This document shows positions 28,105 to 56,644 of a stretch of DNA of 64,000 bases, in pieces (position 1 is the first letter of the stretch; each line of letters begins with the position of its first letter). Under the pieces are notes generated by a model. The model was not told the DNA's origin and did not search any database. It saw only the letters and a program-made list of their open reading frames with translations. A program made the translations under genes and the position numbers. Origin of the DNA: Clostridiales bacterium (GTDB lineage: Bacteria > Bacillota > Clostridia > Christensenellales > UBA1242); the NCBI GenBank assembly GCA_015055515.1, contig SVIC01000006.1:765-64764 (forward strand), given 5' to 3'.

Positions 28105-29046
28105 CTATTTTTTATCATTTGCTTGTTTTCGATCATTTTTCTTTAATGCAGATAAGTCTTTTACAGTCTCTAGCGTAATTCTACCCAACCTTCCTGCCTT
28201 GAAATCGGAAATGATTGCCATGCAACACCTATCATAATCCAGATCTCCGCCACGAAGAAGGTAACGCCTAGAATGACAAATATCATCCAATATCTCTAGC
28301 GTATCTTCATCATCATATATCTCTATCTGATACCTATCCTCTAATATGGATTTATCTATCTTAACTATGTCTTTAATAAATTCATAAGCAAGGTCATTCA
28401 TATCTACAACATCTTCTTTTATACTACCCAAGTACGCTAGCGTTCTAGCCACACGATTATTATCAAAGGTAGGCCATAGCGTTCCTGGAGTATCTAGTAT
28501 CTCTATACCACTAGCAATAGTCACCCATTGCTTACCCCTAGTTACTCCTGCGATATTGCCTGTAATAGTCTTTGACTTACCACAAAGGTTATTAATAAGT
28601 GTACTTTTACCACAATTAGGCACCCCTAATACTAGTGCTCTTAATGTCGCATTCATACCTTTTTTCTTATACTTCTCTATCTTTGCAATACATGCTTCTC
28701 TTATAGCATTCTCCACCTTCTTACCCAAGCCACTAGTTGTTGAATCCATAGATACGCATATACCACCAAGAGTCGTGAAATATTTCATCCAGTCTTTTAC
28801 CTTGGAATCCTCTGCCATATCTACTTTGTTGAAAACATATATTACAGGCTTATCCTTAATTATCTGAGTGAACTTTGGATTAACGCAAGAAAAAGGAGCC
28901 CTACTATCTAGGACATACAATACTGCATCTACCACAGCAATTTCCTTTTCCATCATCTTTAGCGCCTTGGACATATGTCCAGGGAACCAATTTATTCTAA
29001 TCTGTTGTGTATTTTGATCTTCACTGATCATTATATCATCCTTCAT
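28105..29046 (-). CDS. rbgA: Ribosome biogenesis GTPase A (YlqF/RbgA), circularly permuted GTPase
   Basis: 313 aa, ..INWFPGHMSKA..., ..VFNKVDM.., ..LVLGVPNCGKSTLIN.., ..ILDTPG.. Confidence 0.9.
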   Translation of the reverse strand: MKDDIMISEDQNTQQIRINWFPGHMSKALKMMEKEIAVVDAVLYVLDSRAPFSCVNPKFTQIIKDKPVIYVFNKVDMAEDSKVKDWMKYFTTLGGICVSMDSTTSGLGKKVENAIREACIAKIEKYKKKGMNATLRALVLGVPNCGKSTLINNLCGKSKTITGNIAGVTRGKQWVTIASGIEILDTPGTLWPTFDNNRVARTLAYLGSIKEDVVDMNDLAYEFIKDIVKIDKSILEDRYQIEIYDDEDTLEILDDICHSRRYLLRGGDLDYDRCCMAIISDFKAGRLGRITLETVKDLSALKKNDRKQANDKK

Positions 29047-29157
29047 TTTTGTAATTTTATTGTTTTATTATATTTGTTAGTTGTTTTGCCACATATACAT
29101 ACAATCTTCAGCAACTTCTTTTTTTAGTTTGAAGCCAAAATTTGTGTCATTTATTTC

Positions 29158-29844
29158 TCACTTCTTGTTCTTCAAATATTTCCTGTACATATCTGGTCGT
29201 TGCTTCTTAGTAAGTAGTTCGCTCTCTTTCTGTCGCCACTCAGCAATCTTCGCATGATTGCCCGATATCAATACCTCTGGCACATCTAGCCCTTGAAAAT
29301 TCCTAGGATGAGTATATTGTGGATATTCCAATAATCCATCGCTATGACTTTCTTCCACAACACTATCTCCGCTATGCAACACATCTGGTACATACCTAAG
29401 TATACTATCCACTAGCACCATTGCTGGCAATTCGCCACCAGTAAGCACATAATCACCAATGCTTATCTCCTCATCTACACACAGATCAATTGCACGCTGA
29501 TCAATACCTTCGTAATGCCCGCAAAGAAGTACCAAATGTTCTTCTTTTGCCAGATCCGCTACCATAGATTGATTAAGGACCTTGCCTTTTGGCGACATAT
29601 ATATTACCTTAGTACCTTGTTTCTTATGTGCCATAATTGCATCATATACTGGCTGAGCCTGAATTAGCATACCGGCACCACCACCATATGGATAATCATC
29701 TACCTTCTTGTGTTTTTCAGTACTATATTCTCTGAAATCTACTATATTTATATCTACAAGGTTTTTGTCCTGTGCTTTTCCTATAAGGCTAGTCTTAAGT
29801 GGTGCAAACATTTCTGGAAACAAGGTCAACACATCTATCTTCAT
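29158..29844 (-). CDS. trmD: tRNA (guanine37-N1)-methyltransferase
   Basis: 228 aa, MKIDVLTLFPEMF...YPYGGGAGMLI...GHYEGIDQR.. Confidence 0.95.
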   Translation of the reverse strand: MKIDVLTLFPEMFAPLKTSLIGKAQDKNLVDINIVDFREYSTEKHKKVDDYPYGGGAGMLIQAQPVYDAIMAHKKQGTKVIYMSPKGKVLNQSMVADLAKEEHLVLLCGHYEGIDQRAIDLCVDEEISIGDYVLTGGELPAMVLVDSILRYVPDVLHSGDSVVEESHSDGLLEYPQYTHPRNFQGLDVPEVLISGNHAKIAEWRQKESELLTKKQRPDMYRKYLKNKK

Positions 29845-30329
29845 AACGCCATTTCCTCCAAGATTGACTTAACAACAGTCACAACCTTCTTCTCTGTATC
29901 GACACCAAGTATCACACCTCTAGCATGCGGAAACATTACTTCTACGCCATCTTTGTCCATTGATATAACCGATGCTCCACCATAAGAATTTACTGCAGTA
30001 ATCACACCTAAAGCCTCACCTGTATCTGCAATAACCTTGCACCCAATCATATCATCTATGTAATACTCATCCTCTTCCAGACTATCATCTTCTACATCTT
30101 CTATCGAGATCGGAACATTCCTAAGATGCTCTACCTGCGATATATCATCTATTCCCGCCACCTTGAATATAGCAAATCCATCACGAAGAATAACTTTCTC
30201 AACCTCGTATGTTTTTCCCTTTATAATAACTTCTTCTAGATCTTTCATCTCCATCAAATACATGCCTGTTGGCTTTACTCTAAATTGTCCTTTTAACGCT
30301 TGTGGCTTAGTAATTATTCCTATTTGCAT
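29841..30329 (-). CDS. rimM: 16S rRNA processing protein RimM
   Basis: Start set at MQIGIITKPQALKGQFRVKP (RBS AGGGAAG upstream). Overlaps the trmD start by 4 nt. Operon position fits. Confidence 0.85.
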   Translation of the reverse strand: MQIGIITKPQALKGQFRVKPTGMYLMEMKDLEEVIIKGKTYEVEKVILRDGFAIFKVAGIDDISQVEHLRNVPISIEDVEDDSLEEDEYYIDDMIGCKVIADTGEALGVITAVNSYGGASVISMDKDGVEVMFPHARGVILGVDTEKKVVTVVKSILEEMAL

Positions 30330-30459
30330 ACTTCTAACTTCCCTTGTATTATATATTAATTGTAGTGTAACAAAATATTCACATAAAATCAAGTCATATC
30401 AAAAGTTAAATATTTCATAAAAAATAGCGAAAGCCTTACTCACCTTCGCCATTTTCATA

Positions 30460-30690
30460 TTATTCGTTAACTCTTAGAATATATCTCTTACCAGACTTGG
30501 CACTTGCACTACGCAAGATTGTTCTGATACTAGATATAGTCTTGCCGTTTCTACCAATAATCTTGCCCATATCATCTTCATTTGCCTTTACTTTGATTAT
30601 TGTAGCCTTTGGCTTTGATTCATCCATTGTTATCTCAAAATCCTCTGTATTAGTAACAGAAGAGATAAGATATCTAACTAAATTTTCCAT
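30460..30690 (-). CDS. KH-domain RNA-binding protein (YlqC family)
   Basis: Start set at MENLVRYL.. (AAGGGA RBS). ..ANEDDMGKIIGRNGKTISSIRTIL.. carries the KH GxxG motif. Conserved rpsP-KH-rimM-trmD order. Confidence 0.85.
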   Translation of the reverse strand: MENLVRYLISSVTNTEDFEITMDESKPKATIIKVKANEDDMGKIIGRNGKTISSIRTILRSASAKSGKRYILRVNE

Positions 30691-30768
30691 AACTTTATCC
30701 CTTATACTATACAAATTTTCAAACTCGCAAATATCAAAATATACGAAATTTGTTGGTCAAACCGAGTT

Positions 30769-30862
30769 GAGAGCACCGCTAGGTATACTCATATAGTCGC
30801 CACGACTGCCAATATGCGAGTTGCAACACGACAGTGGTGCGTGAACACGATTAGTGTTCGTT
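30769..30862 (-). repeat. Copy A of a 90-nt GC-rich structured repeat in the rpsP-KH spacer
   Basis: 30773-30862 is identical base-for-base to 30940-31029. The 4 nt further upstream match with one mismatch. Confidence 0.9.
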
Positions 30863-30935
30863 TACTCAAAACCCATATTTTCTAAAACACCATTTAGCCA
30901 AACATCAGTTTATATTGGTTGTCGCAAGACTAGAG

Positions 30936-31029
30936 GAGTGCACCGCTAGGTATACTCATATAGTCGCCACGACTGCCAATATGCGAGTTGCAACACGACA
31001 GTGGTGCGTGAACACGATTAGTGTTCGTT
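30936..31029 (-). repeat. Copy B of the 90-nt GC-rich structured repeat
   Basis: Direct repeat of copy A, offset 167 nt. Contains the hairpin gaacac-gatta-gtgttc and an outer pairing gcaccgct/agtggtgc. Confidence 0.9.
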
Positions 31030-31057
31030 GCCCAATCTATGGCAACAAACTCGCATA

Positions 31058-31348
31058 TTACTTCTTTTTCTTTGTATCAGTCTTAGGTGCTCTCTTAGTC
31101 TCTGGAGCCATCAAACCCTTAGTTACTAATAGAGATTTTGCAGTCTCTGTAGGTTGTGCACCATTAGCCAACCACTTCTTTGTCTTCTCCTCATCCAATA
31201 CAATCTCAGCAGGTTGAGTAAGAGGATTGAATGTACCCAACTTCTCAATATACTCGCCGTCTCTTGCCTTTCTAGAATCTGTAACTACTATTCTGTAAAA
31301 TGGTGATTTCTTATCGCCTAATCTTGTCAATCTAATCTTTACTGACAT
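31058..31348 (-). CDS. rpsP: 30S ribosomal protein S16 (bS16)
   Basis: 96 aa, MSVKIRLTRLGDKKSPFYRIVVTDSRKARDG.. Confidence 0.96.
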   Translation of the reverse strand: MSVKIRLTRLGDKKSPFYRIVVTDSRKARDGEYIEKLGTFNPLTQPAEIVLDEEKTKKWLANGAQPTETAKSLLVTKGLMAPETKRAPKTDTKKKK

Positions 31349-31459
31349 ATCTTTTCTCCCTTTGTTTTATTTTACTAATAATTTACCCACTCATAGTTAT
31401 TGTGCTATATTTTTAATATTAGAAAATATCTAATACAAAAATCAAATTATCTTGTTGTC

Positions 31460-32791
31460 TTAGAATGGCAGACCCATTCCCTTAAGAGCACTTAATCCTT
31501 TTCCGCTCTTAAGCCTCTTCATCATGTCTTTTGTTTGCTCAAAATTCTTAAGCAAAGTATTTACATCTTGGATACTTGTACCACTTCCTGATGCAATACG
31601 CTTCTTATGACTGCCTTTGATTATTTCTGGATTTTCCCTTTCTTTTGGAGTCATTGACCTGATAATTGCCTTGATTTTCTCTATTTGTTTTTCATCCAAT
31701 GCATCCGCATTCAACTTCAATTTGCCAAGGCCTGGTATCATTGATAGCATACTAGCGATTCCGCCCATCTTCTTCATCTGGTCGAACTGTGTGATATAAT
31801 CATCTAAAGTAAAAGCATTCTTACGGAATTTCTCTTCCATCTTCTTTGCTTCTTCTTCCGATATGGTTGCCTGTGCCTTCTCAATAAGAGTTAACACATC
31901 ACCCATATTAAGAATTCTGCTAGCCATTCTATCTGGATGGAACGCTTCAATATCCGATATCTTCTCACCAATTCCGCAGAACTTAATAGGCTTATTAACC
32001 ACTTGCTTAATACTAAGCGCTACACCACCTCTAGTATCTCCATCTAATTTTGTTAATATCACACCTGATATATCTAATGCATCATTGAACGCGGTTGCAA
32101 CAGTTACACCATCTTGACCAGTCATACTGTCTACTGTAAGCAATATCTCATTAGGTCTAGTAATATCCTTAATATCCTTCAGTTCTTGCATCAACTCTTC
32201 ATTGATATGCAATCTACCTGCTGTGTCTATAATTACTACATCATAGCCCTTCTTCGATGCTTCATTCATTGCATCTTTTGCTATAACCTGCGGTTTCTTA
32301 GTCCCTTCTTCAAATACATCTACCTTCGCAGTGGATCCTACAACCTTCAGTTGATTAATAGCAGCAGGTCTATAAATATCGCAAGCAACCAACAATACCT
32401 TCTTGCCTTGACCCTTTAACATATTTGCAAGTTTTCCGCACATAGTAGTCTTTCCCGCACCCTGCAAGCCACACATTAGTATAACCGATGGATGACTATC
32501 TAGATCCAACTTTGCGTTCTTATTACCTAACAATTCTGTTAATTCTTCGTGCACAATCTTAACAACTTGTTGTCCAGGTGTCAAACTCTTCAAGACCTTA
32601 TCGCCAACAGCCTTTTCTGACACACGCTTAACAAAATCTTTTACAACCAGGTAGTTAACATCCGCTTCTAACAGTGCAATCCTGATCTCTCTCATAGACT
32701 CTTTTATCTCTAGTTCCGTTAACTTACCACGCTTAGTTAGCTTGTCTAAAATGTGAGTAAGTCTCATACTAAGGTTACCAAATAATGCCAT
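31460..32791 (-). CDS. ffh: Signal recognition particle protein Ffh
   Basis: 443 aa, ..MCGLQGAGKTTMCGKLA..., ..DTAGRL.., and a Met-rich M domain. Confidence 0.97.
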   Translation of the reverse strand: MALFGNLSMRLTHILDKLTKRGKLTELEIKESMREIRIALLEADVNYLVVKDFVKRVSEKAVGDKVLKSLTPGQQVVKIVHEELTELLGNKNAKLDLDSHPSVILMCGLQGAGKTTMCGKLANMLKGQGKKVLLVACDIYRPAAINQLKVVGSTAKVDVFEEGTKKPQVIAKDAMNEASKKGYDVVIIDTAGRLHINEELMQELKDIKDITRPNEILLTVDSMTGQDGVTVATAFNDALDISGVILTKLDGDTRGGVALSIKQVVNKPIKFCGIGEKISDIEAFHPDRMASRILNMGDVLTLIEKAQATISEEEAKKMEEKFRKNAFTLDDYITQFDQMKKMGGIASMLSMIPGLGKLKLNADALDEKQIEKIKAIIRSMTPKERENPEIIKGSHKKRIASGSGTSIQDVNTLLKNFEQTKDMMKRLKSGKGLSALKGMGLPF

Positions 32792-56567: not shown

Positions 56568-56644
56568 CGCGGGGTGGAGCAGATGGTAGCTCGTTGGGCT
56601 CATAACCCAAAGGCCGCGTGGTTCAAGTCCCGCCCCCGCTACCA
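56568..56644 (+). tRNA. Initiator tRNA-Met (CAU)
   Basis: CGCGGGGTGGAGCAG.. 5' end, C1 unpaired with nt 72, A11:U24, GGG/CCC in the anticodon stem, CTCATAA loop, encoded CCA. My hand fold needs a bulged U in the T stem (gcgUgg/cccgc). Confidence 0.88.

Follow-up and report, generated by a model that had tools for sequence, protein, structure and literature searches.

The rpsP-khpA intergenic region and its genes

The stretch analysed here, referred to as the window, comprises 64 kb (64,000 nt) of contig SVIC01000006.1 from a Clostridiales bacterium and contains on its minus strand the genes ffh, rpsP, khpA, rimM, trmD and an RbgA-like GTPase gene in this order, with a long spacer between rpsP and khpA. 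Our comparative analysis shows that this spacer holds a lineage-specific structured RNA of ~152 nt, kept under selection, which we describe as a real, previously unnamed and covariation-supported RNA domain of a narrow clade, with a putative function. The spacer lies among the following genes:

31460-32791, minus strand: ffh.
31058-31348, minus strand: rpsP, open reading frame (ORF) for ribosomal protein (r-protein) bS16 (96 amino acids), UAA stop codon at 31058-31060; the identical protein on contig L001 carries Pfam PF00886.
30460-30690, minus strand: khpA, ORF for a 76-amino-acid KH-domain RNA-binding protein, ATG at 30690, Shine-Dalgarno sequence AAGGGA; the identical protein on contig L002 carries Pfam PF13083 (KH_KhpA-B).

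Counted from the rpsP stop codon to the khpA start codon, the spacer measures 367 nt, as compared to a median of 28 nt across 115 other rpsP-khpA loci. An earlier note, made from the letters of the window alone, had drawn attention to this unusual length and to a structured 90-nt repeat within the spacer. The length is fully borne out, while the nature of the repeat appears in a different light, as discussed below.

A conserved fold that begins at the rpsP stop codon

The functional unit is not the 90-mer but a more extensive RNA structure, ~150 nt long, of which the 90-mer is a part. In this RNA, helix P1 closes a four-way junction with the hairpins P2, P3 and P4, with almost no linker nucleotides, and the long hairpin P5 follows directly. 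The parts of the complete unit, named from the operon strand, are these:

30906-31061, minus strand: unit 1, the complete element, four-way junction plus hairpin P5 (169 bits with covariance model R1; single-sequence minimum free energy (MFE) fold; covariation).
31048-31058, minus strand: 5' strand of P1, AUAUGCGAGUU, pairing with 30979-30989.
30979-30989, minus strand: 3' strand of P1, AACUCGCAUAU (inverted repeat; covariation; coordinates checked).
31027-31046, minus strand: P2, hairpin GUUGCC(A)/GGGCAAC with 7 pairs, 1 of them compensatory (C-G to U-A), and a loop of variable sequence.
31010-31026, minus strand: P3, hairpin GAACAC/GUGUUC with a nearly invariant 6-bp stem and a loop that varies in sequence and length.
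30990-31007, minus strand: P4, hairpin GCACCAC/GUGUUGC with 6 bp around a conserved internal C.U mismatch, 3 of the 6 pairs compensatory.
30916-30978, minus strand: P5, long hairpin of three helices, 63 nt and 20 pairs, of which 6 are compensatory; the middle helix has 5 pairs, 4 of which covary.

The evidence for this fold comes primarily from alignment A1, which contains the first unit from the window and from the loci L002, L163, L164, L003 and L173 (158 columns, 86% mean identity). RNAalifold returned one consensus fold of 50 pairs, with 97.3% of the 300 cells paired. Compensatory double changes were found in 13 of the 50 pairs, distributed over P1 (3), P2 (1), P4 (3) and P5 (6). The covariation score of 0.273 was reached by none of 500 shuffled alignments, which averaged 0.126 ± 0.019, and controls in which the pairing was slid along the alignment showed 28-42% pairing and 0-3 compensatory pairs. 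Likewise, when the 156 nt of unit 1 from the window were folded alone, the MFE structure coincided with the consensus fold (-61 kcal/mol, z -5.7). The closing helix P1 comprises 11 bp, with 98.5% of its cells paired. The first A of its 5' strand is the final base of the rpsP UAA stop codon, and P1 starts at the stop codon in all 6 sequences. The most sequence-conserved part of the element is the apex of P5, AUGARUAUACCU..CGGUGCAYUCCU. Lineages differ, on the other hand, in their hairpin loops and junction nucleotides.

In addition to the compensatory changes, the element is under purifying selection, its identity to the relatives ranging from 0.74 to 0.90 as compared to 0.55-0.68 at the third codon positions of the adjacent khpA. 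A syntenic position in 5 lineages, compensatory changes and slower-than-neutral evolution are all features that the element shares with conserved cis-regulatory structured RNAs in general.

Several of the pairings proposed in the earlier note can be identified with parts of this fold. Its terminal hairpin GAACAC/GUGUUC corresponds to the conserved helix P3, and the pairing of the internal AACUCGCAUAUU motif with the rpsP stop region is helix P1, with 3 compensatory pairs; the 12-nt complementarity of 30978-30989 (also 30811-30822) to 31048-31059 proved exact. Other proposals did not withstand comparison. The outer helix GCACCGCT/AGTGGTGC shows zero compensatory changes and owes its 95% paired cells to the kind of change that occurred, in all cases transitions facing a G or U, which leave a wobble pair automatically; the inner hairpin AGTCG-CCA-CGACT is 77% paired and broken in three lineages. 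Covariation supports P4 (GCACCAC/GUGUUGC) and the long-range P5 in their place, and the GTTGCAAC palindrome is merely the junction of the 3' strands of P4 and P1. The tiny ORF MSIPSGAL.. differs in frame and length in every lineage and its peptide is not conserved; its AUG falls in P5, a 1-nt insertion in L164 shifts the frame, and those codon positions that do vary take part in compensatory RNA pairs. Finally, a helix had been suggested with the khpA-side flank, for which a match to 30722-30732 does exist in the window (10 of 11 positions, inverted repeats I13 and I14), but only in this species.

Distribution among relatives

Relatives were gathered through an S16-based scan of GTDB species genomes, a search for KhpA homologues and look-ups of the encoding contigs. 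Presence, absence and covariation, which the earlier note had named as points to compare in the spacers of relatives, were all found, with the element in 5 lineages. Ordered by the identity of KhpA to that of the window, the relatives are as follows:

L163 (93%): spacer of 430 nt, with a full unit and part of a second one.
L173 (87%): spacer of 224 nt, one unit.
L164 (86%): spacer of 228 nt, one unit.
L003 (84%): spacer of 283 nt, with one unit and part of a second one.
L165 and L166 (84%): spacer of 96 nt, in which the P1 5' strand alone is kept, followed by a simple 11-bp hairpin.
L167-L172, L174-L178, L181 and L004 (7 lineages, 80% or less): spacer of 33-72 nt, element absent, A+T-rich and unstructured.

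This gradient across the relatives indicates a single origin of the element, within a shallow clade of gut Clostridia that are uncultured. The carriers are uncultured metagenome-assembled genomes labelled Christensenella sp. or Clostridia bacterium, and the sequencing runs in which the element was found derive from ruminant, human and wildlife gut metagenomes. The matches of covariance model R1, built from A1, were confined to the rpsP-khpA spacers of this clade when the window and 145 loci (621 kb in total) were scanned. A search for further loci with S16 among metagenome contigs gave a best relative of 73% identity and none useful for this clade.

The loci with intermediate or unusual spacers deserve separate description. 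In L165 (896-1016) and L166 (483-603) the stop-proximal P1 5' strand UAAUAUGUGAGUUUGUU is retained and the rest of the element is replaced by the 11-bp hairpin CUAAUAGGCGU-GAUU-ACGCUUUAUUAG, after which a remnant of the 3' end of the second unit can be seen. The partial second unit of L163 and L003 begins at P3. In L163 it is followed by ~200 nt of extra A+T-rich sequence (1300-1500) with inverted repeats of its own, not present in other lineages.

Tandem units and the 90-nt repeat

Besides the complete unit 1, the following repeated parts can be distinguished in the spacer of the window, copy B of the repeat lying inside unit 1:

30744-30881, minus strand: unit 2, a partly degenerate second copy (R1, 70.6 bits), in which P2 is absent, the P1 5' strand degenerate and the P5 3' half diverged.
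30718-30734, minus strand: third motif resembling the P1 5' strand, AUAUUUGCGAGUUUGAA (AUAUUUGCGAGUUUG; direct repeat D6, inverted repeats I13 and I14).
30940-31029, no strand assigned: copy B of the exact 90-nt repeat, rpsP-proximal, spanning the hairpins P3 and P4, the 3' strand of P1 and, of P5, the 5' half together with the apex.
30773-30862, no strand assigned: copy A of the exact 90-nt repeat, khpA-proximal, a sequence repeat.

The third motif was absent from L003, L163, L164 and L173 and was seen only in the species of the window, where we take it for the beginning of a third, truncated unit.

Direct comparison of the plus-strand sequences 30773-30862 and 30940-31029 confirmed that they are identical and offset by 167 nt, as described in the earlier note. 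A 38-nt probe taken from the copy matched just these two sites in the window (0 expected by chance), and low-stringency blastn detected no further copy there. The arrangement recurs elsewhere: Logan contigs from four different metagenome samples cross the junctions from copy A through the spacer to copy B, the independent ENA contig L002 runs through both copies, which differ there at 2 positions, and two single-nucleotide polymorphisms (SNPs) separate the copies in run X6. Because independent assemblies share the arrangement and other strains have SNPs between the copies, the repeat is not an assembly artefact, an alternative that had been left standing when it was first described.

On its own, a copy of 90-106 nt is marginally above shuffled sequences in stability (z -1.5 to -2.0). 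We read the 90-nt repeat as a tract of recombination or gene conversion that lies within a tandem unit of 167 nt; outside the 90-nt core, the flanks of units 1 and 2 are ~70% identical. In this reading, the tandem duplication is old and its core has been homogenised in the species of the window via gene conversion or unequal crossing-over, events that would also alter copy number. The duplication or gene conversion put forward earlier is thereby retained in the form of a tandem unit with a gene-converted core, but the 90-mer itself is not the element.

Tandem copy number differs from strain to strain, a variation that we ascribe to unequal recombination. Two units are present in the window and in L002, while contig L001, from a JGI sample and encoding the same S16 protein, has one and equals the window minus one 167-nt period; L001 is a contig of 935 nt, and its one-unit form could be a collapsed assembly. 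In runs X5 and X10 a closed unitig of 197 nt (167 + 30, k = 31) reads spacer-core-spacer, which suggests three or more units; in X5 its depth was 12.1, as compared to 2.7 for the flank. In run X3 the 90-nt repeat formed a unitig of its own with only ~1.4 times the flank depth.

Such a repeat might also be a selfish or neutral one, either similar to miniature inverted-repeat transposable elements (MITEs) or repetitive extragenic palindromic (REP) sequences or a plain minisatellite of the spacer, with no function for the host. The narrow clade, the dispensability in relatives, the loss or replacement in L165 and L166, the variation in tandem copy number and a G+C content of ~47%, against ~35% in the surroundings, would all be compatible with this. 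However, the 13 compensatory pairs, together with a change slower than that of neighbouring synonymous sites, point to selection on the fold, and the two tandem copies were the only ones in the window, with none outside the rpsP-khpA spacers in the 621 kb of loci. Moreover, in none of 12 metagenome runs did a Logan contig lead from the core into foreign sequence, nor were loose ends reported there; these flank and depth results across runs, including a repeat unitig at ~1.4 rather than tens of times the flank in X3, argue against a dispersed multi-copy element. Neither terminal inverted repeats nor a target-site duplication are shared across lineages. A candidate for the latter, the flanking direct repeat CAAACTCGCA(A/T)AT (D6), was rejected as it is species-specific and missing in element-bearing relatives; we read this direct repeat as the start of a further tandem unit and the inverted motifs as helix P1. 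Scans of sequence collections were likewise empty, with 0 matches for an exact 22-mer from the core in a genome contig collection, 0 for the conserved P5 apex in a viral contig collection, and 0 for a two-anchor pattern in a metagenome contig collection that evidently does not hold short contigs such as the JGI-derived L001. A functionless repeat is the most improbable of the explanations that we consider, and the data support a selected structured RNA module, one of the possibilities named in the earlier note, rather than a plain dispersed MITE as far as tested.

Transcription and proposed role of the element

The minus strand was scanned from 30300 to 31500, and no sigma-70-type promoter and no intrinsic terminator reached the scan threshold in the spacer. 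P5 is followed on the operon strand by AUAUAAACUG, a combination that does not qualify as a terminator (G+C-rich hairpin plus U-tract). A promoter within the spacer, serving either khpA or an antisense RNA, was considered and rejected, none being present at the scan threshold. Since the operon strand carries neither promoter nor terminator in the spacer, the element is expected to be transcribed along with the operon, its RNA being part of the sense strand of a polycistronic rpsP-khpA-rimM-trmD message.

The explanation that we favour, with a probability of roughly 0.45, is that the element is a cis-acting processing or stability module which uncouples the rpsP message from khpA-rimM-trmD. Acting in cis on the polycistronic mRNA, the stacked helices just past the stop codon might be cleaved by a double-strand-specific RNase, hold up 3'-exonucleases, or do both. 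The abundant S16 message would in this way be uncoupled from the downstream genes, which are needed at a lower level, and the conserved apex of P5 may additionally recruit a specific protein. Given that P1 starts in the stop codon, every terminating rpsP ribosome would have to melt this helix, with the structure re-forming behind it, and the fold might hence respond to the translation of rpsP. The loci L165 and L166, in which a simple 11-bp hairpin replaces the element at the same place after the retained P1 5' strand, fit a generic role of stable structure at this position. Sequestration of the khpA start does not account for the element, which is separated from the downstream khpA Shine-Dalgarno sequence by at least 70-100 nt; by eye, the conserved YUCCU in P5 could form only 4-5 bp with the ribosome-binding sites of rpsP or khpA.

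Several observations weigh against this processing or stability role. Close relatives do without the element, having unstructured spacers of 33-72 nt, and therefore the element is not essential. Alignment A1 is a small sample, with 6 sequences from 5 lineages that are all metagenome assemblies. To act as a nuclease barrier, an RNA would not need anything as elaborate as a four-way junction with a hairpin apex of conserved sequence, which points to specific recognition. In addition, the transcribed strand and the processing sites are putative: searches for RNA-seq or metatranscriptome runs containing the sequence found none, the antisense alignment folds at least as well as the sense one (alifold -66.6 vs -59.3 kcal/mol, z -7.4 vs -5.7), and the counts of G.U versus A.C pairs do not separate the strands, each having one invariant wobble pair that would be an A.C mismatch on the opposite strand.

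These last figures bear directly on the possibility that the functional RNA is made from the plus strand, as an antisense transcript ending at P1 and a U-rich tract. Not only does the antisense strand fold better, but also the variable cells contain 5 mismatches that are A.C on the sense and G.U on the antisense strand, against 2 of the reverse kind, a lean that is not significant. On the plus strand, the U-rich tract UUACUUCUUUUUCUUU (31060-31075) lies directly after P1 and is the complement of the C-terminal lysine codons of S16; for any antisense transcript, P1 and this tract have a terminator-like arrangement. However, the tract simply arises from the KKKK codons and occurs too in relatives that do not have the element, no promoter-like site was found on the plus strand upstream of the element at the scan threshold, and the sense strand is expected to be transcribed anyway within the operon mRNA. 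We therefore regard an antisense RNA as highly improbable.

A second competitor of the processing or stability module is an operator for a specific protein, with the junction, the P5 apex or both bound by bS16, KhpA/KhpB or another protein, and with feedback on khpA-rimM-trmD; the tandem units would then multiply the binding sites. Sequence conservation is highest in the P5 apex and the helices, and not in a nuclease-type feature, and both flanking genes encode RNA-binding proteins. A review describes the trmD operon as being without known regulation, and reports that the S16 protein of Escherichia coli binds four-way (cruciform) DNA (PMC10931766). Nevertheless, the hairpin loops and junction nucleotides vary between lineages, the position downstream of rpsP makes a classical repression of S16 translation impossible, and the distance to the khpA Shine-Dalgarno sequence speaks against masking. 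The KhpA/KhpB literature that was checked describes neither a defined binding motif nor autoregulation via the rpsP-khpA spacer, and binding by these proteins is putative. An operator is possible in our judgement, though unlikely.

The operon transcript could also be cut to release the element as a free-standing stable small RNA (sRNA) of ~150 nt, which would act in trans or sponge up a protein and whose dosage tandem copies would raise. A compact and very stable unit with closed ends, P1 closing the junction and P5 following directly, and a copy number that varies between strains would be in keeping with such an RNA. The unit has, however, neither a promoter nor a terminator of its own, its second copy is degenerate (70.6 as compared to 169 bits), and no conserved single-stranded seed is visible, the loops being variable. 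We consider this origin decidedly unlikely. Viewed more broadly, it is a doubtful proposition that the junction and hairpin constitute the binding site of a specific protein (most attractively bS16 itself, or KhpA/KhpB) or else a stable non-coding RNA of a new class that is released from the operon. [quoted passage not shown]

The operon encoding S16, KhpA, RimM and TrmD is nearly universal. Whichever its precise role, the element offers a tractable handle on how one lineage might separate the expression of an abundant r-protein from that of assembly and modification factors, and it shows clearly how, in nature, a structured RNA module can be tandemly amplified and gene-converted within an essential operon. 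The scope of the finding is narrow: the carriers known so far are a few closely related, uncultured gut Clostridia, and their close relatives live without the element.

Relation to known RNA elements

No known riboswitch, ribozyme or r-protein leader had been recognised in the repeat when it was first noted, and our Rfam check of the window and homologous loci agrees with this. In a cmscan with Rfam 15 (E up to 10), window positions 30300-31500 gave only a chance match to a long non-coding RNA inside khpA, and the spacers of L003, L163, L164, L173 and L002 gave no match. A tRNA or tRNA-like structure was also considered and rejected: the only tRNA that ARAGORN calls in the window is tRNA-Met at 56568-56644, and the Rfam tRNA models had no match even at E = 10. 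The tRNA-like cloverleaf elements of mRNAs do resemble the present fold in having a four-way junction of ~81 nt closed by pairing of the 5' and 3' ends, but the closing stem of our element has 11 bp, its loops are of the wrong size and of variable sequence, and there is no CCA-like 3' end.

A second likeness is with r-protein operon leaders and intercistronic operators, which are likewise covariation-supported RNA structures in the mRNA of r-protein operons, beside genes for RNA-binding proteins. Examples are the S7 site between rpsL and rpsG, the S8 site within the spc operon and the L19/rplS leader of Bacillota. In contrast to these, our element sits after the r-protein gene, overlaps no ribosome-binding site, has no Rfam match, is restricted to a few closely related lineages, is tandemly amplified and has a protein partner that is only a candidate.

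With regard to the favoured role, the closest analogues are the REP sequences and bacterial interspersed mosaic elements of E. coli operons and the RNase III sites of polycistronic mRNAs. As in our case, a stable structure is located immediately 3' of a highly expressed cistron, the members of the operon are needed at different levels, and tandem arrangements occur. REPs are palindromes of ~35 nt dispersed in hundreds of copies, whereas the element described here is a multi-helix fold of 152 nt at a single locus as far as tested, for which cleavage or stabilisation is a proposed role.

The trmD operon of E. coli (rpsP-rimM-trmD-rplS) is the same operon and has the same need for S16 far above the downstream non-ribosomal genes. 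The effect in E. coli is attributed to local mRNA structure at the rimM start. The present locus differs in having a large separate domain between rpsP and khpA, a gene missing from the E. coli operon. Expression of the E. coli operon is described as non-coordinate and determined at the level of translation in a passage of PMC4378010 that cites Wikstrom and Bjork (1988).

Other observations on the operon

Among the relatives without the element, the clade with 80% KhpA identity (L167-L172) combines a short rpsP-khpA spacer with an unusually long khpA-rimM spacer of ~257 nt (~1732-1988). This second spacer is A+T-rich and conserved between strains, and a 56-amino-acid ORF without a Pfam hit has been called within it in some records.

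The classical order rpsP-rimM-trmD-rplS is not kept in the window. In the region 28105-29844, trmD (29158-29844) is followed by the RbgA/YlqF-like GTPase gene (28105-29046) and not by rplS, while in L163 a Ham1-like gene comes after trmD.

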